64,000 bases of DNA. Origin: Candidatus Woesearchaeota archaeon. GTDB lineage: Archaea; Nanobdellota; Nanobdellia; SCGC-AAA011-G17; PNOQ01. The position numbers were made by a program, and so were the translations under genes. The DNA lies in contig CAZCDH010000001.1 of the NCBI GenBank assembly GCA_964497715.1, positions 25,343 through 89,342 on the forward strand, written 5' to 3'. Under the pieces are notes generated by a model that worked only from the letters and a program-made list of their open reading frames with translations, did no database searches and was not told where the DNA came from. Below, piece after piece: positions 1,219-62,806 of the stretch (within the stretch, counting starts at the first letter, position 1; every line of letters begins with the position of its first letter).

Positions 1219-1683
1219 TTAAAATGTTATTTCTATCCCTTCACCACATGTTACTGCACAATTACATTCTTTATCTATGCCTTCTTGTGTGTATGCTACT
1301 TCAACTGTTGGTATAAACTTAGCTGAAACTGGATCTCCAGATAATCCTGTAAATTCTACAACAGTATTATTGAAAGATGATAAAGTTCCTTGTTTCACTT
1401 CTAATGATGCACCGTTTAAATCATAAACTCCAATTGCATAACTAGCGTCCACAGTATTTCTGTTGGTTATACTTATATTTGCAAGTAGTGTTCCATTAAC
1501 TCCAGTTATATCAAAATTCTTTAAATTCATACACCCAGTATTAGCTTCAATTTTACAACCTTCATCACACATTCTTGTTTTAGTTATATCTTCAATGAAA
1601 CCTATAACTAGAACTGCAAGTAGTATTGTAAATCCTACGATTAAAACTGTTGCAATTAACGGGGATATCGCTTTTTTATTCAC
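1219..1683 (-). CDS. Archaeal type IV pilin (Pilin_N-type class III signal peptide).
   Basis: The N-terminus MNKKAISPLIATVLIVGFTILLAVLVIG matches the archaeal pilin N-terminal consensus (KKAxSPVIATVLLI). Confidence 0.65.
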   Translation of the reverse strand: MNKKAISPLIATVLIVGFTILLAVLVIGFIEDITKTRMCDEGCKIEANTGCMNLKNFDITGVNGTLLANISITNRNTVDASYAIGVYDLNGASLEVKQGTLSSFNNTVVEFTGLSGDPVSAKFIPTVEVAYTQEGIDKECNCAVTCGEGIEITF

Positions 1684-1769
1684 TCTCTCTTCACCTCCTT
1701 TTTAATCATTCTTAAACTATAAACTTAGTTTAAAATTTGTTTAGTATGTATTTAAAGGTTTTGGTAGAA

Positions 1770-9635: not shown

Positions 9636-10985
9636 TTGAGTATGATAACTTTAACTAAAGATGAGATTTTGAAAAAAATAAATGAAGATAAAGTTAAATT
9701 CATAGAATTACAGTTCTCAGATATATTTGGTGCAATGAAAGCAGTAACTATTACTGTTGATGAATTAGATTCTGCAATAGTTAAAGGTAAATGGTTTGAT
9801 GGGTCTAGCATAAGAGGATTTGCAAGACTTGCAGAAAGCGATATGTATCTAAAACCTGATTTAAACACTTACTCACTAATCTATCCAGTAAATGAAGAAT
9901 TAAAAACTGCTAGATTTATTTGCGATATTTATACACCTGATGGAAAACCATATGAAGGAGATCCAAGACAAATTCTTAAAAGAGAGATTGAAAATGCTGA
10001 GAAATTAGGATTTGAATGTATGTTTGGTCCAGAGATAGAGTTCTTTCTTCTAAAATCTGACGATAATGGAGAGATGATCCCTGTTCCAAATGATATAGGA
10101 GGATATTTTGATAGCTCAACTTATGATAAAGCAAGCGAAGTTCGTAAAAAAATAATGTTGATAATGGAAGAAATGGGATGGAAAGCAGAAGTTGCACACC
10201 ATGAAGTCGCTATAGGTCAACATGAAATAGGGTTCAAATATGGTGGCGCTCTGGATATTGCGGATAAAATCATTACTTTGAAACAAGTGATAAGATCTAC
10301 TGCACAAAAAGATGGACTACACGCTACTTTTATGCCGAAACCTTTCTTTGGAGTTAATGGTAGTGGAATGCATATGCACTTTAGTGTTATGGACAAGTCA
10401 GGAAATCCATTGTTTTATGATGAAACTGATAAATATAAATTATCTACATTTGGTAAAAACTTCATGGCAGGAATAATGAAACATATCAAAGAGAGTTGTA
10501 TTTTATTTGCACCAACTACAAATTCTTATAAGAGACTTGTTCCAGGTTACGAGGCACCTGTATATATCTGTTGGGGTAGCACAAATAGGAGTTCTTTGGT
10601 CAGAGTTCCAAAACCTTTCGAAGGTGTTCCAAAATCTGTAAGGGCAGAACTTAGATGCCCAGATCCTAGTTGTAATGCATATCTTGCATTTGCCACAATG
10701 ATAAAAACGGGATTAGATGGAGTAGCAAACGAAGAGAGAATTGCAGATGCTGTTGAAGAAAGTGTATTTGAATATAATGATGAGAAATTAAATGACCTTA
10801 AGATAGATACTTTGCCAGAAACACTTGGCGAAGCACTAGAAAATTTTAAAAATAGCAGATTTATGCTTGAGTTTTTAGGTGAAGGGTTCTTTAAGAAGTA
10901 CTATGAGGCAAAAAAAATAGAGTGGGACGAATCTAAAATTCAAGTAACTGAGTGGGAACTAGATAAATATCTAGATTCTGCTTAA
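9636..10985 (+). CDS. glnA: Glutamine synthetase.
   Basis: 449 aa. It has the GS beta-grasp N-terminal domain and catalytic motifs such as GSGMHMHFS and NAYLAF. Confidence 0.85.
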   Translation: MSMITLTKDEILKKINEDKVKFIELQFSDIFGAMKAVTITVDELDSAIVKGKWFDGSSIRGFARLAESDMYLKPDLNTYSLIYPVNEELKTARFICDIYTPDGKPYEGDPRQILKREIENAEKLGFECMFGPEIEFFLLKSDDNGEMIPVPNDIGGYFDSSTYDKASEVRKKIMLIMEEMGWKAEVAHHEVAIGQHEIGFKYGGALDIADKIITLKQVIRSTAQKDGLHATFMPKPFFGVNGSGMHMHFSVMDKSGNPLFYDETDKYKLSTFGKNFMAGIMKHIKESCILFAPTTNSYKRLVPGYEAPVYICWGSTNRSSLVRVPKPFEGVPKSVRAELRCPDPSCNAYLAFATMIKTGLDGVANEERIADAVEESVFEYNDEKLNDLKIDTLPETLGEALENFKNSRFMLEFLGEGFFKKYYEAKKIEWDESKIQVTEWELDKYLDSA

Positions 10986-11004
10986 ATCAAAAAGAGGTGA
11001 AAAT

Positions 11005-11748
11005 ATTAACATAATAAAATTTGGAGGATCTATTGTCAATCCTGATGGAAAATATGATGACAAAGTTATTGAAGAGTTTGCAGACTTAGTTAAAAAATCT
11101 AATGAAAAATTTATATTTATTGTTGGTGGTGGAAAAATATGCAGATTTATGCAAGACAGTTCTCAAAAATTTTTAGATGATGCATTAGGCACAGATTCTG
11201 AACAAAAAAGTTTTGCTAGAGATGAGATAGGCATTGCAACTACTAAGATTAATGCACGATATGTATTAAATTATTTTAAGAAATATCTTGGAGGAAAAAT
11301 CAAAATATTCCCAGAAATCTTAATAGATCCTACTGAAAAAGTAGATAAATCTTATGATGCATATTTAGTTGGAGGTTGGAAACCAGGACATAGTACTGAC
11401 ACTGATATGATGCTCTTGGCGAAAACATTCAAAGCTAGTAGAGTTATTAAAATCAGCGATTTTGAAATAGTAAAGAATGTTAAACCTACAGACCTTCTTG
11501 GAAAATCAAAGAAAGAGATGAAAAATATACTAGATAATGCAAAGGACTTAGATAGTATGACTTGGAAAGAGTTGACTAAATTAGTTGGAAGTGAGTGGGC
11601 TCCAGGACTTAATACTCCTTTTGATCCAAAAGCTGCAAAAATTGGTTATGATCTGAAGAATAGATTAACTCTCTGTATAGGTAGAAAAGAGGAAGTCGGT
11701 AAGATGTTGGGTGGAGAAGACTTTAGAGGGACAGTTGTTAAAAAATGA
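11005..11748 (+). CDS. pyrH: Uridylate (UMP) kinase, archaeal type. It probably initiates at a non-canonical ATT or ATA.
   Basis: The conserved N-terminal motif (N)IIKFGGSIV is encoded in frame at 11002-11034, upstream of the tracked ATG at 11149. The tracked region contains IVGGGKICRF, GGWKPGHSTDTD and the C-terminal CIGRKEE...GT of archaeal UMPK. There is no ATG, GTG or TTG in frame between the preceding in-frame stop (10972-10974) and 11149. A strong SD, AGAGGTGA, lies at 10993-11000. Confidence 0.7.
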   Translation: MNIIKFGGSIVNPDGKYDDKVIEEFADLVKKSNEKFIFIVGGGKICRFMQDSSQKFLDDALGTDSEQKSFARDEIGIATTKINARYVLNYFKKYLGGKIKIFPEILIDPTEKVDKSYDAYLVGGWKPGHSTDTDMMLLAKTFKASRVIKISDFEIVKNVKPTDLLGKSKKEMKNILDNAKDLDSMTWKELTKLVGSEWAPGLNTPFDPKAAKIGYDLKNRLTLCIGRKEEVGKMLGGEDFRGTVVKK

Positions 11749-14170: not shown

Positions 14171-14218
14171 AATAAAAATAAAAATAAAAGGGGGAAAATA
14201 ACATCACCTCTTTTCCCC
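14171..14218. terminator. Convergent-gene terminator hairpin between the nitroreductase (+) and ftsZ (-) genes.
   Basis: A perfect 8-bp inverted repeat ggggaaaa/ttttcccc with a 12-nt loop. It is flanked by an A-rich run on the plus strand, which is T-rich as read by the minus-strand ftsZ transcript. Confidence 0.4.
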
Positions 14219-17812: not shown

Positions 17813-18124
17813 ATGAAATCTAAGCTAAATAAGGAATATTTTGAAGAACTAGTGAATGACCATTTTAGAAATGTGCGTAGTACAATTTTTGGTTTTACTA
17901 TTGGAGTATTCGAAGAATCTGTGTCTGGACCAGATGGAGGATTAGAAAATGTTGTTGAAGGTTTTGCATATACCACAGGATATTTTACTGTAGAAAAACT
18001 ATCTCACAAATTATTAAGAGGATATAATATGAAAGACGATGTATCCGGACCTTATTTTTTTGGAGGATTCTTAGCAGGACAGACTATCACAAATTATCTT
18101 AAGAAAAAAATAATAAATAGTTAA
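17813..18124 (+). CDS. Hypothetical protein (103 aa).
   Basis: ORF only. Confidence 0.3.
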   Translation: MKSKLNKEYFEELVNDHFRNVRSTIFGFTIGVFEESVSGPDGGLENVVEGFAYTTGYFTVEKLSHKLLRGYNMKDDVSGPYFFGGFLAGQTITNYLKKKIINS

Positions 18125-19224
18125 TTAATTACTTCTGTTTCAACTTTATCCAAATTAAAATAATTACTTGAATAATTGTATGCTCCAGCATTTATGAAAG
18201 TGATTTTATCTCCAACGTTTATTTCTTTGTCAAAATAAACTTTGTATCTGAAAATATCTAAAGAATCTGGAGTAAATCCTTTGATTGTGTAGCAAAATCC
18301 CTCTTCTTTCTCATTTTCAACTAATAATCTTATATGTGCAACGAAAGTGTCCATCGCAGAATTATATACAGAAGCATTTACAATGACATTATTATCATAA
18401 ACATTTGTAACTTCGCACTCTAATTTTATTGATGGAGCTGCAATAAATCTGCCTGGTTCGATTATTGTAGTGATTTCTTTCTCATTCAAGAATTTTTTCA
18501 GTTCTCTGATTTTATTAAAAATAATTTCTTTTACTTCTTTTCTGAAATTCTTATACTCTGCAGGTATTCCTCCACCTATATTCACAATATCTATCTTTGA
18601 AAAATCTTCTATTGAATCTTTTAACTCTTCTTTTAGATTCCATTCAGAGACATTTTGAGTTTTTCTGTGAAAATGGATACCTAGCTTCTCTATGTTATTG
18701 TTATTTTTTAATTCTTTTAGTAATTCATTGATTCTTGAGCTTGAAAATCCGAAAACAAAGTGTTTCCCTGTGTGAATTGTGTGCTCTCTTAGTTTCATCC
18801 TTAGGAGCAAATTAATTTTTCTGTTTTCTTTTAAGAGTAATCTGAGATCGTTTTCATTATCAACAACGAAATTATTTACTTCTTTAGGGACCTCTTTGTT
18901 CCCCTGTAAGAAAAACCAAACTTTTTCTTTATTTTCTAATAATTCTAAGTTCTGTTTCGAATGCACACTCATAAAGCATCGATTCTCTAAGATTTTGGCA
19001 ACTTCTATATTAGTTTTAACACTATAAGAAACCTCATCTGCTAGAGATTTCATTATCTCTAAGTGATCTAGTGCTATTTTTTTACTTAAAATAAATCTAG
19101 CTTCCATGATAATCTGGTCAAAAAGTTGACTTTTAAAGGTTTTTATTACGAAGTTCCCTAAAGGATATTCTTTCGATTGATTCAACATAAGATTTATATA
19201 TTTCAATTGCTCATTAAATGACAT
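18121..19224 (-). CDS. PLP-dependent decarboxylase of the Orn/DAP/Arg decarboxylase (alanine-racemase fold) family; candidate arginine decarboxylase.
   Basis: It has the motifs NIGGGIPAEY and IIEPGRFIAAPS (the EPGR motif), and a candidate PLP-lysine region FVIKTFKS near the N-terminus. The neighbouring agmatinase and deoxyhypusine synthase suggest polyamine synthesis. Confidence 0.5.
   Translation of the reverse strand: MSFNEQLKYINLMLNQSKEYPLGNFVIKTFKSQLFDQIIMEARFILSKKIALDHLEIMKSLADEVSYSVKTNIEVAKILENRCFMSVHSKQNLELLENKEKVWFFLQGNKEVPKEVNNFVVDNENDLRLLLKENRKINLLLRMKLREHTIHTGKHFVFGFSSSRINELLKELKNNNNIEKLGIHFHRKTQNVSEWNLKEELKDSIEDFSKIDIVNIGGGIPAEYKNFRKEVKEIIFNKIRELKKFLNEKEITTIIEPGRFIAAPSIKLECEVTNVYDNNVIVNASVYNSAMDTFVAHIRLLVENEKEEGFCYTIKGFTPDSLDIFRYKVYFDKEINVGDKITFINAGAYNYSSNYFNLDKVETEVIN
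19134..19178. repeat. 45-bp perfect direct repeat, copy 1. Copy 2 is at 20050..20094.
   Basis: The sequence taaaggtttttattacgaagttccctaaaggatattctttcgatt is identical at both sites. This copy lies in the 5' coding region of the decarboxylase gene. Confidence 0.9.
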
Positions 19225-25180: not shown

Positions 25181-26574
25181 CTTAGTTTTATTCCTCTTAA
25201 TCTTATTGAAGGTCCTCCTGTTGTTACAGGTATTCCTTGCATCGGTTCCCCTTTCCCACATGTTGCTGCGAAAAATTTCAGATTATCTGCTACTCCATCT
25301 ATTGAAGACCAAAATGCAGGGGTAGTTATCTCAAGTATTGGAGCCCTAACAGGTTTAGTTAATTCTCCTTTCTCTATAAGATATGCTTCATTTCCTACAT
25401 ATTTTTGTTGATATCTCTTATCATCTATGTTCCATTCCATGAAGTTTTTTATGTAAACTCCTTTTTTGATATCTTTGATTAGTTCCTCTTCTTTCTGAGT
25501 CCCTTTCTCTACATAAGTATTTGACATTCTAACGATTGGTTCAACTGAAAAATGATTTGCTCTTGCCGATCCGTTACTTTTTACACCTAACTGGGATGCA
25601 GTATCTCGATTGTGTAGGAATTCATTTATTTTCCCACCTTTCATCAATATTTTTTTCCTTGCCTTTACACCTTCATCATCATATAAATAGAATCCATATT
25701 TCCCTTTTAGAGTTGGATCATCAATAACTGTTACATTCTTATACCCAATTTTATTGCCTAGCATATCTTTGGTAACAAATGATTCTCCAGCTTGTGCAGA
25801 CTCTCTTCCAAAAATTCTGTCTGCCTCATAAGGATGTCCACAAGATTCATGAGTTGCTATTCCTGTAACTTCTGGTGCACAAATAACATCCACCTTTCCT
25901 TTTGGCACTTTTATTCCTTTAATCATATTTGTTTTTAGAGTTGCTATTTCTTCACCTATATTTTTCTCCAATTCCCATTTTTTGATTGCTTCATAACCTG
26001 TAGAAGTACCATACTGGTGAGCCCTTTGGATGGATTTATTTGATTCCATCAAAGTTATTAAATAAAAGAAATTAATAGTAGGAATTTCTGAATATATCCT
26101 CGACCCTTCTGTGTTAATATAGTATTTCTTAACTAGTTTATCCGAGAGTGAATAGTATCCATGCTGAGGAGTTATTGATTTATTTAAGTCTGTTAAAATT
26201 TTTATTTTCTCTTCAGGACTCACATCTCTAACATCTTTTATTTGTTTGACTTTGTAAGATTTTTTTTGAATTTGCTCAGGAGAAAACTCTATTTTCTCAG
26301 ATAATTTTGAAGATTTTTTTGTTATCTTAATTGCCTTATCTAATTGTTTTTTTATGTGATCTTTTGATAACTGATTTGCTGCCATAAATCCCAATGAATT
26401 ATTTATTGAAAATCTGATTCCCAATCCTGTACTATTATCAAAAGACGAGGCATCTAGATTTCCATCTTTTAGCATGAAACTATTTGAATATCTAGATTCT
26501 AGTCTAGCTTCAGCATAATCTGCCCCTTTCTTTTGAAGATATTTAATTGAAAAATCTGCTATTTCTTTATTCAT
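25177..26574 (-). CDS. TldD/PmbA-family metallopeptidase (TldD-like).
   Basis: 465 aa with the conserved TldD region (GHPYEADRIFG...). It is paired with its paralog, as is usual. Confidence 0.65.
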   Translation of the reverse strand: MNKEIADFSIKYLQKKGADYAEARLESRYSNSFMLKDGNLDASSFDNSTGLGIRFSINNSLGFMAANQLSKDHIKKQLDKAIKITKKSSKLSEKIEFSPEQIQKKSYKVKQIKDVRDVSPEEKIKILTDLNKSITPQHGYYSLSDKLVKKYYINTEGSRIYSEIPTINFFYLITLMESNKSIQRAHQYGTSTGYEAIKKWELEKNIGEEIATLKTNMIKGIKVPKGKVDVICAPEVTGIATHESCGHPYEADRIFGRESAQAGESFVTKDMLGNKIGYKNVTVIDDPTLKGKYGFYLYDDEGVKARKKILMKGGKINEFLHNRDTASQLGVKSNGSARANHFSVEPIVRMSNTYVEKGTQKEEELIKDIKKGVYIKNFMEWNIDDKRYQQKYVGNEAYLIEKGELTKPVRAPILEITTPAFWSSIDGVADNLKFFAATCGKGEPMQGIPVTTGGPSIRLRGIKLR

Positions 26575-42720: not shown

Positions 42721-44652
42721 TTAGTTTACTAGATTAACAAAAAATTTGTAAATTTGTGCGTACCATGGAATATTTATTATGTCTATCGCTTTTATCTCAT
42801 TTAATTCGAAAGTATTCCCAAATTCATCTTCGTATTCTATTAAAATCTTTATTTTATTATTCAGGAGAGATTTTGAGTTTAGCTTTGCTTCTAGATTAGT
42901 TATTCCTTGTGACTCTTGGATTATTTGTTTGTCTGCATTGTTTATAGATATGGATAAGTTTTTTATCAGTGCTTTAGAATCTAACCTAAATATGAAATCA
43001 AAGTCTTCGCCATAATTCACTTGGTTTGGATATTCAAAGTAAATCATTTTTAAGTCTGGTTTCCCCAGAACTATTAGTTGAATATTACTGATTAAATCTA
43101 CTACACCATTTTTTGCAGAGACTACTCTCTCTGTTAGATTTTCTGCATGAATTTCAAAGAGTATTTCTTTTTCTTTAGATATTGTTAAATCTATGAGTTC
43201 ACATTCTTGATCTAAACAGACTGAAATATCTGTTAAAATCTTATTACCTATATTTTTTATATTACAAGATATTGGTACAGTTTCAAAAATATAATAGTAT
43301 GGTCTCTCAGATCCACATTCTAATGAAATCTCTTCAGAATAGGTTTTTTCTTCAATCTCTTCTAACTCTTCTATCAGATCTCTTGCTTCATCTTCTGAAA
43401 TGTAATCATATCCTTCGCTTGAAGAGAATTCTATAACATCCGAAGTTATTTCACCAAATAGATCTATAACTTCTATCTGAGTGGTGTACCTCATGTTATT
43501 TTCAGCATCATCTGGAATCTTTATTATCCAAAAAATTGCTTTATTTTGTTTAGGTTTTAGTAAAGTTATCTTAGTATTATCTGACAATAAATCTGGAGCT
43601 TTTGTTATTATTGCAGTATCAGATACATAAGAATCGTATGGGTTTTCTATAGTTACTTTTATTGGAACATAACTTCCAGGAGATACATTATTCTCCAGTA
43701 TTTCTAGATCAATATCAAAAGGAGAATCTATTTTGTTTCCAAAGTCTGCAATCTCTGCACTGATGTTTAAACCCTCGGGAGAGATTAATACATTATTTGA
43801 TCTCCAATTATACCTTATTGAAGGAGTTCCAGAATCAACATTTTCTAATAACCTTATATGAGTTGGATCAATCCAACCAAACTGTCCGAATGAAATATCG
43901 AAAGGTACCCACCCATAATCTGGGAAATACGCTTCCGCCCATCCGTGATTACCAAAATCTTCTGTTGTTCCCGAATATGCTACACCTGAAATAAATCTTG
44001 TTGGAATTCCTACTGAACGAGAGAGTGAAATAAATAATGTTGCAAGCTCATCACATACACCTTCTTTATCTTCTAATACCCATGAAGAAGATAATGCCGC
44101 ATTTGCAGTTTGTGAATTCAAATCATACTCTATATTCTTTTTTACCCAGTTTGCTATTTTGAAAACTGCCGAATAAAGATTTGATTCTCCTTCAATGATC
44201 TCATTTGCTTTCTCTAATATCTCTGGAGTAATATCTGTCTTTTCTCCTTCTTCTAAGTAAATCTCATAATCTTCATCCAAGTTTATTATTGGAAATTGTA
44301 TTCGTGGAATTTTGTGTAAAACATTTTCAGTCTCTATTTTTGAAGTATATCCAAACTCTATAGTTTCCGAATAATCTTCCCATCTAAATTTTAGAGAATC
44401 ATCTAATTCACTTATCTCTGCAGGTTCATCTGAAAAAGTGTTTAAATATAGTATAGATTGTGTTTGGAGTTGAATTGGATTAATTAGAAGAGTTGCTTCA
44501 GCATGATCTAAACTAGCCCCAGACTCCTCTTCTTCCATAGTTAGTTTTGCTAAAACTTCAAGATCAATAGTTATAGTAGAGTAATCAGTATAGGACTCTT
44601 GAGCTAAAACTAATGGAACTAATAACAAAAAAAATAAAATTGCTTTTTTTAT
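42721..44652 (-). CDS. Secreted transglutaminase-like (Cys-His-Asp) domain protein. It probably initiates at ATA 44652.
   Basis: The core is EGVCDELATLFISLSRSVGIPTRFISGVAYSG...NHGWAEAYFPDYGWVPFD. The in-frame upstream codons encode (M)KKAILFFLLLVPLVLAQE, a textbook signal peptide. The SD AAGAGGTGA (44670-44662) lies 7 nt before ATA at 44652. There is no ATG or GTG upstream of the TTG at 44628. Confidence 0.6.
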   Translation of the reverse strand: MKKAILFFLLLVPLVLAQESYTDYSTITIDLEVLAKLTMEEEESGASLDHAEATLLINPIQLQTQSILYLNTFSDEPAEISELDDSLKFRWEDYSETIEFGYTSKIETENVLHKIPRIQFPIINLDEDYEIYLEEGEKTDITPEILEKANEIIEGESNLYSAVFKIANWVKKNIEYDLNSQTANAALSSSWVLEDKEGVCDELATLFISLSRSVGIPTRFISGVAYSGTTEDFGNHGWAEAYFPDYGWVPFDISFGQFGWIDPTHIRLLENVDSGTPSIRYNWRSNNVLISPEGLNISAEIADFGNKIDSPFDIDLEILENNVSPGSYVPIKVTIENPYDSYVSDTAIITKAPDLLSDNTKITLLKPKQNKAIFWIIKIPDDAENNMRYTTQIEVIDLFGEITSDVIEFSSSEGYDYISEDEARDLIEELEEIEEKTYSEEISLECGSERPYYYIFETVPISCNIKNIGNKILTDISVCLDQECELIDLTISKEKEILFEIHAENLTERVVSAKNGVVDLISNIQLIVLGKPDLKMIYFEYPNQVNYGEDFDFIFRLDSKALIKNLSISINNADKQIIQESQGITNLEAKLNSKSLLNNKIKILIEYEDEFGNTFELNEIKAIDIINIPWYAQIYKFFVNLVN

Positions 44653-44706
44653 TTCTAATCACCTCTTAATGAGATAAGTGACAGCTTAGTTTATATTTAT
44701 TTCGAT

Positions 44707-47247
44707 TTAACATGCAGAAAAATCACAGGATGAACACCTTTTACAACCTTCTTGAAAAATTAGCTTCCCGCTTTCACATTTTGGACATTTTATTCCGTAT
44801 GTATTCTTCTGACCTTCATTTGAATTTGCTGAACCGTTACCATTACCGTTACCGTTTCCTTTCTTTAAAGTATCACTTAATTCATCAACAATCTCATTGT
44901 AATCAACATTCCCTAACATTACATCCTCAAATCCATAATTCTCTATTGCCATCAGATATTTCTTAAGTGCCCTTCCAACTCCGTCAGGTATGGAAGTAAC
45001 TACCCCTTCTCTGGTAGGAATGCTAGCTATACTCGCACCTATTCCCTCTAATTGATCTACACAATAATTCGGATCCACTCCAGCCCTCAAATTAGTACTT
45101 AGCTGCCTACAAATTCCTTCTAAATCTGCGTGCACTACATCTCCACTTTTTCCTAGCTGTGCAAATACTTCATAAGGGAACCCATCTTTTGGATCCACAG
45201 TGATATTTACATGCATGTGACCAAAAGGAGTATTTTGTTTTATTTTTACTGAAGGCATCATATCAGGAATCTTTCTTGGAGTGATATAGGTTCTCTCAGT
45301 TTCCTCTTCTTTATTTGTTTCTAAAACTTGAATATCTTTTGAACCATCTCTATAGATAGTTGTACCTTTCAACCCCATCTGGTATGCCAATAAATATGCT
45401 TCCTTAACATCATTAACTGTTGCTTTGTTTGGCATGTTTATCGTTTTACTTACAGCATTATCTAAATTTCTTTGGAATGCTGCTTGAATTCTTATATGGT
45501 CTTTTGAATTTATATCTCCTGCAATCTTGAATACTTCTTGTAACTCTTCTGGAATCTCTTTTATTCCCTTCAGTGAACCTCCGTTCTTTTCTATCTTATC
45601 AAGTAGTTTTTCTGAATATATTCCCTTATCTTTTAGTGCTCTTTCTAATTCAGGATTCACAAATTTCAGCCTTTCTCCGCCTCTGATATTCTTATAAAAA
45701 ATATTTGAGAAATAAGGTTCTATTCCTCCAGATACTCCTGCCACCATAGCTATTGAACCTGTTGGAGCAATTGTTGTTCTTGCAACATTTCTAACTCTAT
45801 CTTCTAAATCTCCATTATCATATATACTTCCTTCAAATGCTGGAAAAACTCCTCTTTGTTCTGCTAATTGAACCGACTTCTCTTTCGCAGTATTATTTAT
45901 TTTAGACATTACTTGTTCTGCAAGTTCTACTGCTTCTTTAGAATCATAAGGTACTTTCAATTTTAATAACATATCTGCCCAACCCATTACACCAAGTCCT
46001 ATTCTTCTGTGAGCTAATACAGTGTCTTCTATTTCTTTTATTGGACCTTTACTAGCATCATTTACATTGTCCATGAAATGTACTGCCGTTTGAGTTGTTT
46101 CAATTAATTTGTTCCAATCAACTTCATATCCATCTTCTAATTTTTTGACCATGTTTGAAAGATTGAGTGAACCTAAGTTACATGCATCATAAGGATGCAA
46201 AGGTTGTTCTCCACAAGGATTTGTAGCTTTTATCGGACCCTTATTTGGTAAGGGATTTTCTCTATTTATTGCATCTAAAAATATCATTCCTGGATCTGCA
46301 GTTTGCCAAGCAAGATTTGCAATTATATCCATTACCGAAGGACCATATAACTCGACATTATTTTCTTCATTTATCCTTCCAATATCTTTGTTTGTATATG
46401 AGTCTAGAACTCTCCTATTTTCCTTATCTACTATTAAAGAGGGAGGATTTGGCGCCTTTCCAATTTCTGAACCACCTAGTTTATTCTCTTCTATATTGGA
46501 TTGATAGTTAAGTAAGTCGTCTAGAGTCAGAGGATTTCCTTTGAATTCTAATGGGAAATAACCATCATTTATTGTCGCATCCATAAACTTATCTGTAGCT
46601 CCAATTGAGATGTTGAAATTCTTTAATTTTCCATGTATTGCCTTTGCATAAATAAAATCCATTATATCAGGATGATTTACATCTAAGATCCCCATATTTG
46701 CTCCACGCCGATTTCCAGAGTTTATTATTTCCGTTGCCTTATCGAACTGCTCCATGAAAGAGATCGGACCTGATGCAACTCCTTTTGATTTTTTTACATA
46801 ACTTCCTCTAGGCCGTAGTTTTGAAAAATTATATCCTGTACCTCCGCCTTCTTTGTGGATTCTCGCACCTTTTCTAACTTCTCCGAAGATATCATTAAGA
46901 TCATCATCAGGATCTATACTATCTTCAGGATCAAGTACATAACAATTGAATAGAGCTTTTGTTTCTGTTCCTGCATTCGTGAATACTCTTCCCGCAGGTA
47001 AAAAATCTAGATTTGTCATGGCGTTATAAAAATTTTCTGTTACTTTGCCAATTTCTTTCTCAGAATGACCATAACCTGAATCTATATTTGCTATAGTATC
47101 TGCTATAGTGTATAGCCTTTCTTTTGGCCCTTCTACCACTTCCCCTTCACTATTTCTTTTAAGGTATTTTTGCTCTAAAGTCCACTTAGAATTGTCCGAT
47201 AGTCTCTCTTCAAGATTATCTTGGTTTACATAATTAGGTAATTTCAT
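44707..47247 (-). CDS. nrdJ: Ribonucleotide reductase, class II (adenosylcobalamin-dependent).
   Basis: It has the NrdJ motifs (TNPCGEQPL, ten-strand alpha/beta barrel), a C-terminal (GN)n linker and a Cys4 zinc ribbon (CPKCESG...CKRCSSC). 846 aa. Confidence 0.8.
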   Translation of the reverse strand: MKLPNYVNQDNLEERLSDNSKWTLEQKYLKRNSEGEVVEGPKERLYTIADTIANIDSGYGHSEKEIGKVTENFYNAMTNLDFLPAGRVFTNAGTETKALFNCYVLDPEDSIDPDDDLNDIFGEVRKGARIHKEGGGTGYNFSKLRPRGSYVKKSKGVASGPISFMEQFDKATEIINSGNRRGANMGILDVNHPDIMDFIYAKAIHGKLKNFNISIGATDKFMDATINDGYFPLEFKGNPLTLDDLLNYQSNIEENKLGGSEIGKAPNPPSLIVDKENRRVLDSYTNKDIGRINEENNVELYGPSVMDIIANLAWQTADPGMIFLDAINRENPLPNKGPIKATNPCGEQPLHPYDACNLGSLNLSNMVKKLEDGYEVDWNKLIETTQTAVHFMDNVNDASKGPIKEIEDTVLAHRRIGLGVMGWADMLLKLKVPYDSKEAVELAEQVMSKINNTAKEKSVQLAEQRGVFPAFEGSIYDNGDLEDRVRNVARTTIAPTGSIAMVAGVSGGIEPYFSNIFYKNIRGGERLKFVNPELERALKDKGIYSEKLLDKIEKNGGSLKGIKEIPEELQEVFKIAGDINSKDHIRIQAAFQRNLDNAVSKTINMPNKATVNDVKEAYLLAYQMGLKGTTIYRDGSKDIQVLETNKEEETERTYITPRKIPDMMPSVKIKQNTPFGHMHVNITVDPKDGFPYEVFAQLGKSGDVVHADLEGICRQLSTNLRAGVDPNYCVDQLEGIGASIASIPTREGVVTSIPDGVGRALKKYLMAIENYGFEDVMLGNVDYNEIVDELSDTLKKGNGNGNGNGSANSNEGQKNTYGIKCPKCESGKLIFQEGCKRCSSCDFSAC

Positions 47248-47364
47248 TTTTGCACCTCTTAAATAATATTAATTTAGATTATAGAAATTAAATTGACTTG
47301 ATATATAAACATATATAGTGTTTAACTTAGATTATTTATTGTATAAATTAGAATATAGAATTTA

Positions 47365-56430: not shown

Positions 56431-56501
56431 GGGTCCATGGCCAAGCGGTAAGGCACGAGGTTGCAGCCCTCGGATCCTGGGTTCGATTCCCAGTGGGCCC
56501 T
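56431..56501 (+). tRNA. tRNA-Cys (anticodon GCA).
   Basis: GGGTCCATGGCCAAGCGGTAAGGCACGAGGTTGCAGCCCTCGGATCCTGGGTTCGATTCCCAGTGGGCCCT. It lies 3 nt after tRNA-Arg. Confidence 0.8.
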
Positions 56502-57337
56502 TATAATTGATTTAGGTAGTCCCTTTTTAGCTTGAAGCCGTTTCTTTTGGCTAGCTTTGTTATCGCCTTATCTATGCCTGAACCGTATTGTGCAGCTATT
56601 TTTTTTCTATTTGCAAACTCGATAGGTATTCCAAGATCGATTGCTAGTTCTCTAAGAATGATTTTATCTCTTTCTATGTCGAATTTCTCTTTGATTGGAA
56701 ATGCCATGGATTGTTTTATCACCTCTTCATCTAGCAAGGGCGCATTTATAATTACATTTAGATTGTTTGCTATTGGTATGTCTCTGCTCAGGTCTCTCTT
56801 CCAAGTAGTTTTAAGGCCGTTCCAGCACTCTTTTTCAGGATTTTCTGAAGTCCTATATCTTTTATAGCCTACGAATAATTCCTCTGCCCCTAGGCCTGAA
56901 AATAGGTTTGATTGGTTGTCTTGTTTAGCTAAATCTGCTGCAATATGGACTACTGTCCCTATACTTAGTTTTACTGTATCTCTTTCTTTTAGTATTTTAA
57001 TTGTTTTCTTTAGATAAATCTCTACCTCATCTAGAGAAACTATTTTTGATTTTAATTTAAAACCTAGAGTGGTTGCGATTTCTTCTGCCGCCTTCAAATC
57101 TTTTGAATTTTCAATTCCTATAGAGTAACAGGTAAAATCTTTATTTAGTTTTTTTAGAATAAACGCTATTAGTGTTGAGTCTATTCCTCCTGAGAATAAG
57201 ACCGCATTGTCATCTTTTGCTTGTTTTTTGATAGATTCTATTATTGATCCTTTTAGTTGTTTTTTAGAAGGTTTTATTTTTGTTTCTTTGATACTCTCTA
57301 TTCTAGAAATCCAATTAGCTTTAGGTATTAAATCCAT
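56501..57337 (-). CDS. PP-loop ATP pyrophosphatase superfamily protein (asparagine-synthetase-C-terminal / LarE-like).
   Basis: It has the SGGIDS PP-loop at residues 49-54. It is 278 aa with no Zn-finger cysteines. Confidence 0.45.
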   Translation of the reverse strand: MDLIPKANWISRIESIKETKIKPSKKQLKGSIIESIKKQAKDDNAVLFSGGIDSTLIAFILKKLNKDFTCYSIGIENSKDLKAAEEIATTLGFKLKSKIVSLDEVEIYLKKTIKILKERDTVKLSIGTVVHIAADLAKQDNQSNLFSGLGAEELFVGYKRYRTSENPEKECWNGLKTTWKRDLSRDIPIANNLNVIINAPLLDEEVIKQSMAFPIKEKFDIERDKIILRELAIDLGIPIEFANRKKIAAQYGSGIDKAITKLAKRNGFKLKRDYLNQL

Positions 57338-62389: not shown

Positions 62390-62806
62390 TAATATTCCTG
62401 CAGTTAGTACACCTAGTACAATTGCTAAAAGTGCTTTTTTCCTTCTAATTTTGAAAATCCATGCTGCCAAAACTCCAGTGTATGCTCCTGTAAATGGTAA
62501 AGGAATTGCAACCAATAAATAAAGCGCAGGTAGTTCCCACTTTGTTCCGATATGTTTCTCTATCTTTTTTGTGGTTCTTCTTACTTGGAAATAGAAAATT
62601 CTTTTGTAAAATCTTGCTCTTAAGAAGAAATGATGTAAATAATCTAAAAAGAAAAAGATGAATGGCACTATTGCTATATTAGCTAATGTTGCTATAAAGA
62701 ATGTTAGTAATGGATCCATCCCAATTATTTTTGAATAGATTATTGCACCTCTTAGTTCTGAAATAGGTAATATACTTAGAAGAATGAGTTTAGCGATTGT
62801 TATCAT
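62363..62806 (-). CDS. Small membrane protein, putative small multidrug export family (COG2426-like).
   Basis: The N-terminus is LPISELRGAIIYS. It has 4 TM helices. Confidence 0.35.
   Translation of the reverse strand: MITIAKLILLSILPISELRGAIIYSKIIGMDPLLTFFIATLANIAIVPFIFFFLDYLHHFFLRARFYKRIFYFQVRRTTKKIEKHIGTKWELPALYLLVAIPLPFTGAYTGVLAAWIFKIRRKKALLAIVLGVLTAGILLSSGLSLI

Follow-up and report, generated by a model that had tools for sequence, protein, structure and literature searches.

Where does translation begin when the conserved N-terminus of a protein is encoded upstream of any ATG, GTG or TTG codon? This question is raised by two genes in a 64-kb stretch of DNA (positions 25,343 to 89,342 of contig CAZCDH010000001.1, hereafter the window), one for an archaeal-type UMP-kinase-like protein and the other for a secreted transglutaminase-like protein. 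The initial annotation described both as having conserved N-termini without ATG, GTG or TTG behind strong Shine–Dalgarno (SD) sites, and when the two genes were re-examined all of the features described were indeed present. Weighing the comparisons set out below, we put at about 85 % the probability that these are two intact genes whose translation begins at near-cognate AUH codons (H standing for A, U or C), namely the AUU at 11005 and the AUA at 44652, each lying behind an SD. The window has a G+C content of 31–33 %, and because the homologues of its genes carry the names Candidatus Woesearchaeota, Nanoarchaeota or plain archaeon, the DNA is assigned to a DPANN archaeon.

In the UMP-kinase-like gene, the frame of the first ATG (11149) is bounded upstream by an in-frame TAG at 10972–10974, and there is not a single ATG, GTG or TTG in between. 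A CTG in the same frame, at 10978, precedes the SD and still belongs to the end of glnA, the neighbouring gene for glutamine synthetase. From the ATT, the frame reads (I)NIIKFGGSIV and the predicted N-terminal peptide is MNIIKFGGSIVNPDGK; the product of the ATG at 11149 would begin at Met49 of this protein, with MQDSSQK. The full-length homologues in Woesearchaeota open with MNIIKFGGS or close variants (MNIVKLGGS), in some cases after a short extension. The DNA of the 82 % identical orthologue from a sister species reads GAGGTGAaaaaaGTG AAT ATA ATT AAA TTT GGT GGA, compared to GAGGTGAaaatATT AAC ATA ATA AAA TTT GGA GGA in the window, and the GTG of the sister species sits exactly at the ATT of the window, the position at which more distant orthologues have ATG. 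Initiation at an ATT or ATA had been proposed for this gene, with the ATT at 11005 and the ATAs at 11011 and 11014 all as candidates. On the basis of the sister alignment, the ATT is the homologue of the start codon and the two ATAs are internal Ile codons, so the proposal holds for the ATT but not for the ATAs. The GAGGTGA of the SD is kept in the sister species (L010–L016), and the glnA stop and the start are separated by 19 nt in the window as against 21 nt in the sister. As the spacer differs by 2 nt between the two, the in-frame homology begins exactly at the start codon (ATT or GTG). GGTG precedes the start by 5 nt, as it also does in the GAGGTGcaaaaATG of the ribonucleotide reductase (RNR) gene.

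When the ATT is used as the start, the Pfam domain AA_kinase spans residues 3–213 of the protein, and residues 3–244 match positions 2–220 of the 222 in the NCBIfam model pyrH_arch (TIGR02076). This extent of match requires the ATT start, as the truncated kinase covers only model positions 60–220. The best matches in the PDB were archaeal uridylate kinases (E = 5e-11), aligned from residue 3–4. The pyrH_arch score, at 92.3 bits, does not reach the curated equivalog cutoff of 158, and hence UMP-kinase-like is the safest name. The region upstream of the ATG is under purifying selection. For codons 2–48, comparison with the sister species gave a dN/dS of 0.065/0.477 = 0.14, which can be set beside 0.108/0.845 = 0.13 for the remainder of the gene, and differences at codon positions 1, 2 and 3 numbered 4, 3 and 12, respectively. 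A shorter kinase homologue of 205 aa (P0051) was considered as further evidence for truncation of database entries and rejected; it is truncated because of a run of N in the assembly (GCA_964542815.1), which cuts the orthologue at approximately 570–600 of locus L025.

In the transglutaminase-like gene, TTA, GAA and ATA are the only codons that separate the KK of the signal peptide from the in-frame TGA. The initial annotation placed the SD 7 nt before the ATA; the spacer, TTAGAA, is 6 nt. Measured from GGTG, the distance to the start in GAGGTGAT is 7 nt, and both this and the 5 nt of the kinase gene fall within the range of 5–8 nt observed for canonical SD-led genes in our sample. The protein includes a Pfam Transglut_core domain (PF01841) at residues 149–252, scoring 97 bits against a cutoff of 23, and homologues of 630–650 aa are found throughout Woesearchaeota. 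Their N-termini follow the pattern MKKxxLLL...A-Q, in which an n-region of MKK or the like leads into a hydrophobic core and then A-Q, and the features of the signal peptide predicted by eye from the ATA start, namely the KK n-region, hydrophobic core and A-Q motif, are common to the orthologues. The sequence GAGGTGAttagaaATA is conserved in three lineages, those of the window and of its two nearest relatives, which share 88 % and 61 % protein identity with it and are both N-terminally truncated in the databases. The DNA of the relatives reads GAGGTGATTAGAA ATA AAA AAA TCA and GAGGTGATTAGAA ATA AAG AGG TTA, so that the SD, the spacer and the ATA are all kept (L017–L020 and L021–L024). The ATA initiation proposed for this gene is borne out, as the codon is retained in three lineages and no ATG is found at the corresponding site there. 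In comparisons with the two relatives, the first 28 codons gave dN/dS values of 0.25 and 0.14, again indicating purifying selection. One further homologue entry, P0113, was examined as evidence for truncation and set aside, as in that case a normal ATG had been miscalled.

Were translation to start at the downstream canonical codons, the ATG at 11149 and the TTG at 44628, the upstream in-frame sequence would be an untranslated leader. These are the first in-frame ATG, GTG or TTG codons, and they are the starts used in database entries P0002, P0089 and P0090. However, the upstream stretches evolve as coding sequence and they encode the Gly-rich motif and the signal peptide of essentially all orthologues. 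No SD lies at a working distance from either downstream codon, and the TTG, which is inside the hydrophobic core and 30 nt past the SD's GGTGA, corresponds to TTA in both relatives, where the first canonical codon falls beyond the signal peptide. The kinase made from the ATG, which is the 199-aa entry P0002, would lack pyrH_arch positions 1–59 and has no Pfam hit on record. Starts at the downstream codons are, hence, very improbable.

The lack of a canonical start would also be accounted for by a mistake in sequencing or assembly, or by an unseen indel that puts an upstream ATG back in frame, but nothing that supports this was found. In the kinase gene, GAGGTGAaaatATT is identical in nine independent assemblies (from JGI, ENA and Logan, and made from different samples with different pipelines), three further assemblies of the window species carry an identical GAGGTGAttagaaATA in the transglutaminase-like gene, and for the latter the same codons are present in assemblies of two other lineages. 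There is no ATG in any frame in the 19-nt spacer of the kinase gene. Error is, thus, practically negligible as an explanation. The initial annotation had argued for genuine non-canonical starts rather than frameshifts, and the agreement between assemblies, together with the coding-like evolution of both upstream regions, upholds this. It had also held that an ATG at the corresponding position in close relatives would point to a mutation or an error. The transglutaminase-like gene gives no such indication; for the kinase gene, the sister species has GTG and distant orthologues have ATG, yet the ATT is identical in the nine assemblies. Because of this identity and because the open reading frame (ORF) is intact, the GTG and ATG codons of the relatives serve to fix the start site and do not indicate an error.

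In order to place the ATA start in a wider context, orthologues of the transglutaminase-like gene were collected by scanning one genome per species. This yielded 80 loci, all of them from Woesearchaeota, Nanoarchaeia or unclassified-archaeon metagenome-assembled genomes (MAGs) apart from one titled uncultured Methanosarcinales, and the start of the signal peptide was mapped in the 78 that were informative. Clear AUH starts (ATA, ATT or ATC with no canonical alternative) were found in 11 of the 78. A further seven are ambiguous, with an AUH codon 5–8 nt after GGTGA and an in-frame GTG inside the SD that is chosen by gene callers, and approximately 60 start with ATG. Distant homologues that are truncated in the databases read tGAGGTGATgagcagATC AAA AAA and aGAGGTGATggagaaATT AAA AAG, and both ATC and ATT starts were seen at this distance. 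An SD match of at least 6 nt precedes all 18 AUH starts and none of the approximately 60 ATG starts (Fisher p = 4e-13 for the strict set and 5e-18 with the ambiguous cases included, phylogeny being ignored); a strong SD combined with ATG was never seen in this family in the 78 loci. In a quick neighbour-joining tree of 77 orthologues, the combination of SD and AUH falls into at least eight separate clusters, interleaved with ATG lineages. The mapped starts include no CUG or ACG, only third-position variants of AUG, and many of the AUH starts lie within 13 nt of the stop codon of the upstream gene, on either side of it. Orthologues of the ATG class are of two kinds, those preceded by a TATA-like box and those in which the start overlaps the preceding gene as ATGA. 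This 4-nt overlap with the upstream stop was seen in many of the ATG orthologues (L034, L047–L059 and others) and represents a third start mode of the gene, beside the leaderless-like mode and the SD with AUH.

AUH starts were also found in other gene families. At three of four loci that encode NrdR, the start codons are ATT, ATT and ATC behind GAGGTG or GGGGTG, and at the fourth it is an ATG without a properly spaced SD. Read from the AUH start, residues 1–42 of NrdR match positions 1–42 of the Pfam domain Zn_ribbon_NrdR, and residue 1 aligns with residue 1 of the Escherichia coli NrdR. For the RNR orthologues in the related loci, the codon behind the SD was ATG or TTG in every case. The ATA start of an RNase HII gene (L092) directly follows an in-frame TAA, and residue 1 of the protein aligns with residue 1 of PDB 1uax. 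A gene for a CoA-binding (ACD-like) protein (L061) has an ATT start behind AAGAGGTG; its orthologues in three other loci start with ATG, and two of these, which have a clear TATA-like box, look leaderless. A further case, a NIL-ferredoxin gene, comes from an independent sample; its start region is AAGGTGAtttaagATA, an in-frame TGA stands two codons upstream, and the NIL domain aligns from residue 7. Of 25 AUH starts, 7 are ATC, compared with just 8.8 % of the Ile codons in the same genes (binomial p = 0.005); hence, the AUH start codons are unlike ordinary Ile codons.

A palindrome, acaATATATTGTat, is located approximately 25–45 nt upstream of each NrdR-like gene (L073 ~2330–2345, L095 ~2290–2305, L090 and L101). 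Its resemblance to the NrdR box of bacteria is a hint that nrdR may be autoregulated in these archaea.

The frequency of AUH starts depends on the sample. In the first sample, which was centred on the transglutaminase-like gene, 5 of 16 SD-led genes outside that family have an AUH start. The independent sample was centred on GatB and consisted of metagenome contigs. Its Woesearchaeota-like part comprised 24 loci (250 kb), in which the ORFs that have 100 codons or more and lie behind a strong SD included 12–13 with a canonical start, one with AUH and three with neither. The AUH rate was, thus, approximately 1 in 14 SD-led genes, and the single case, the NIL-ferredoxin gene, looks real. In other lineages of the control, AUH was at background, with 5 cases versus approximately 33 ORFs in which codons of both kinds, canonical and AUH, are missing at SD distance, and three AUH candidates that were inspected look like junk ORFs. 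Dominance of AUH among SD-led genes in general was rejected on the strength of this control, and because it gave one AUH start among approximately 14, the claim was reduced to family-specific usage. Hence, AUH starts are real and recurrent in the lineage but are concentrated in certain families, and they are not the rule for SD-led genes.

In the window, approximately 35 gene starts were compared singly with contigs from sister lineages. This start-by-start comparison replaced an all-against-all comparison of ORFs with the sister loci, which was too noisy because close relatives share non-coding DNA too. Nearly all of the genes compared start with ATG, and most have no SD and instead have a TATA-like box (tttataaa or ttatataa) approximately 25–30 nt before the ATG, which suggests that the predicted mRNAs are mostly leaderless or have very short leaders. 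A long SD of the GAGGTG type is confined to a few genes, namely those for RNR, a small membrane protein, the UMP-kinase-like protein and the transglutaminase-like protein. AUH starts were assigned to 2 of approximately 65 genes in the window. A third candidate, TAAGAGGTGcaATA near 62751 on the minus strand, was rejected; it is inside a gene for a small multidrug-export protein, its spacing is only 2 nt and the Pfam domain of the exporter begins upstream, from the ATG at 62806. The window contains six tRNA genes, none of them for Met, and no 16S rRNA gene, and an Rfam scan of it found only tRNAs. The features of the two genes and the comparators are listed in the table.

Table. Start signals of the UMP-kinase-like and transglutaminase-like genes, with comparator starts in the window and an initiator-type tRNA gene from a related locus (positions are those of the window unless a locus is given)
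Feature	Position	Strand	Remarks
TAA stop of upstream glutamine synthetase gene (glnA)	10983..10985	+	19 nt before the ATT start
SD site of UMP-kinase-like gene, AGAGGTGA	10993..11000	+	followed by AAAT, then ATT
ATT start codon of UMP-kinase-like gene	11005..11007	+	aligns with GTG/ATG starts of orthologues
Full coding sequence, archaeal-type UMP-kinase-like protein (amino-acid kinase family), 247 aa	11005..11748	+	
First canonical ATG in the kinase frame	11149..11151	+	taken by gene callers; 199-aa product without the Gly-rich N-terminal motif
SD site of transglutaminase-like gene, AAGAGGTGA	44659..44667	-	its TGA (44659-44661) is the in-frame stop bounding the ORF
ATA start codon of transglutaminase-like gene	44650..44652	-	followed by KKAILFFLLLVPLVLAQE
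Predicted Sec-type signal peptide, (M)KKAILFFLLLVPLVLA	44602..44652	-	read by eye
In-frame TTG in transglutaminase-like gene	44626..44628	-	start used by gene callers (635-aa P0089, P0090); probably not the start
Full coding sequence, secreted transglutaminase-like protein, 643 aa	42721..44652	-	
Start of RNR gene, AAGAGGTGcaaaaATG	47245..47260	-	comparator; strong SD with canonical ATG
Start of small membrane protein gene, AGGAGGTGAagagagaGTG	1681..1699	-	comparator; strong SD with GTG
Examples of starts with TATA-like box and no SD	49258, 48396, 50865, 36081, 33459	-	
Examples of starts with TATA-like box and no SD	9642, 15695, 17813	+	
Initiator-type tRNA gene	L092 1617-1705	-	apparent 12-nt intron beside the anticodon loop; on the same contig as the RNase HII gene with ATA start

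Other observations were made in the window. A further perfect copy of AGAGGTGA is found at 14204–14211 on the minus strand, where the nitroreductase and ftsZ genes converge on an intervening gap; an ATG follows directly, the ORF has only 32 codons, and this may be a small ORF or a chance occurrence. At 56719–56726, also on the minus strand, AGAGGTGAT is within a gene for a protein of 278 aa (56501–57337), with an ATG 12 nt later that is apparently in the frame of the gene, and the site could mark an internal start (for a C-terminal product of approximately 70 aa) or be due to chance. For the ornithine/arginine decarboxylase gene (18121–19224, minus strand), orthology places the start at the ATG at 19107 (328 aa) and not at that of the longest ORF at 19224 (367 aa). 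In the sister species, a gene for a phage-type integrase adjoins the decarboxylase gene (L010 9422–11274); it is absent from the window.

Several points weigh against initiation at AUH codons. The SD octamer AGAGGTGA was observed 5 times in the window with 2.1 expected, and as 8 of 100 shuffled sequences reach 5 this enrichment is not significant by itself; the significance of the SD comes from its position and its comparative conservation and not from the octamer count. In the seven ambiguous transglutaminase-like orthologues, the GTG within the SD is an alternative start. Among background studies, the start codons given in a review of archaeal translation initiation are limited to AUG, GUG and UUG (PMC7531240), the initiation factor aIF1 is reported to destabilise initiation complexes on non-AUG mRNAs (PMC6237735), and near-cognate sites in ribosome-profiling data from Haloferax were left aside because they might be false positives (PMC7261190). 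Finally, the ATT of the kinase gene is specific to one species, the closest relative having GTG and all other orthologues ATG. The last point raises the possibility, for the kinase gene alone, that an ATG or GTG has recently mutated to the ATT, with loss of function, and the gene is a young pseudogene or has negligible expression; a very recent loss would escape detection by between-species dN/dS. Against such decay, the ORF and the SD are intact, the upstream region is identical in nine assemblies and the 199-aa product is identical in all 17 contigs that carry the gene. The arrangement of SD and AUH has been kept over long evolutionary distances in other genes of the lineage, and no second copy of the kinase gene was seen within the window. 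We therefore consider decay of the kinase gene to be quite improbable.

If AUH codons are the starts, initiation could proceed as follows. The long SD (GAGGUGA or GAGGUGAU) would pair with the 3′ end of the 16S rRNA, and this pairing would set the AUH codon, 5–8 nt downstream of GGUG, in the P site. A normal initiator tRNA with a CAU anticodon would then pair at the first two positions and the protein would begin with Met. Output would probably be kept low by the weak codon, with the strong SD supplying the binding energy that the codon lacks. In the aEF1A mRNA of Pyrococcus abyssi, GGAGGUGAU located 4 nt before the AUG (6 nt from GGUG) acts as a strong archaeal SD (PMC6237735). As leaderless mRNAs have no SD to offset a weak codon, the fact that AUH is never found without an SD would also be explained. 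The use of AUH by the genes for the NrdR repressor and the secreted enzyme, with RNR using canonical starts behind the same type of SD, suggests that low output may have been selected. An initiator-type tRNA gene was recovered from one AUH-using species and has A1:U72, the GGG:CCC anticodon stem and a CAT anticodon. A search for an unusual initiator tRNA in 60 related loci found only this one initiator-like tRNA, with its normal anticodon. A tRNA with a four-base anticodon (tcgg) was predicted by ARAGORN in locus L067 (6492–6580, minus strand). It is probably a tRNA-Arg(TCG) with an intron, of the kind that neighbouring loci have at this position.

The codons could, alternatively, be read in a specialised way, by an initiator tRNA with a modified C34 that reads AUN, by initiation with tRNA-Ile or by re-initiation, under relaxed codon checking, of ribosomes that have terminated on the upstream gene. 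The restriction to third-position variants of AUG, the absence of ATG behind strong SDs in the transglutaminase-like family and the proximity of many AUH starts to an upstream stop would all fit with this. However, the sole initiator-type tRNA gene that was recovered has a CAT anticodon, though modifications are invisible in DNA, and ATA is read as Ile inside genes, e.g. in IIKFGGS. Furthermore, as the RNase HII gene in L092 and the CoA-binding gene in L061 appear to have their own promoter and leader, coupling to upstream translation is not required. Specialised decoding is, on this evidence, unlikely, and SD-assisted initiation at AUH with a normal initiator tRNA is preferred.

A broader scheme can be put forward tentatively, and we hold it to be possible rather than probable. 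Woesearchaeota may have two start-codon regimes, in which leaderless genes and genes with an ATGA overlap strictly need AUG, and genes with a long SD of the GAGGUGAU type can use AUA, AUU or AUC as regular starts kept in place by selection, with AUH preferred in the transglutaminase-like and NrdR families. If this is so, the aIF1/aIF2 machinery of the lineage would tolerate, or be tuned for, third-position mismatches, and the DPANN proteomes predicted from MAGs would be systematically truncated at such genes.

Initiation at such codons has precedents outside the archaea. In animal mitochondria, AUN codons (AUA, AUU and AUC) serve in initiation; AUA is also read as Met inside genes there and a single tRNA-Met with a modified C34 is used. 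Here, in contrast, ATA within genes codes for Ile in the ordinary way, and the anticodon of the single initiator-type tRNA gene that was recovered is CAT. Among bacterial examples, infC, which encodes IF3, has AUU or AUA starts and pcnB has AUU, and in Deinococcus the starts of dnaA and rpsL are ATC and CTG, respectively (PMC2830850). The infC and pcnB genes resemble the present ones in that particular genes have a conserved third-position variant of AUG behind an SD, which is missed by gene callers and leads to heterogeneous annotated N-termini (PMC2830850). They differ in that discrimination is by IF3 and autoregulation of infC has been demonstrated, whereas the genes considered here are other genes, are archaeal and would be served by eukaryote-type factors (aIF1, aIF1A and aIF2). 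The Deinococcus genes are likewise essential or conserved, their non-canonical starts are conserved in the lineage and the corrected start restores a conserved N-terminus (PMC2830850). Those starts were established with peptides from N-terminal proteomics and include a CTG, whereas ours are known from sequence comparison and no CTG was seen. Closer to hand, archaeal GUG and UUG starts are also cases of non-AUG initiation on mRNAs with an SD of the GGAGGUGA type (PMC7531240; PMC6237735). In these codons it is the first position that departs from AUG, and annotation recognises them, whereas AUH codons differ at the third and are absent from the list in the review (PMC7531240). No earlier report of AUH starts in DPANN or Woesearchaeota was found in our literature searches. 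The differences from the bacterial precedents are that the starts are archaeal, that they belong to different gene families and that the association with a long SD is all-or-none across many species.

The start codons recognised by gene callers such as Prodigal are limited to ATG, GTG and TTG. As a consequence, public entries are truncated, with a kinase entry that lacks the nucleotide-binding N-terminus and transglutaminase-like entries that lack signal peptides, and such truncation may distort reconstructions of the metabolism and secretome of DPANN archaea. The two genes also provide a concrete, testable case of near-cognate initiation in which a eukaryote-type apparatus is combined with a bacterial-type mRNA signal. 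Finally, the bias between families, with AUH found for a repressor and a secreted enzyme and not for RNR, suggests that in this lineage start codons may be used to set the level of expression.

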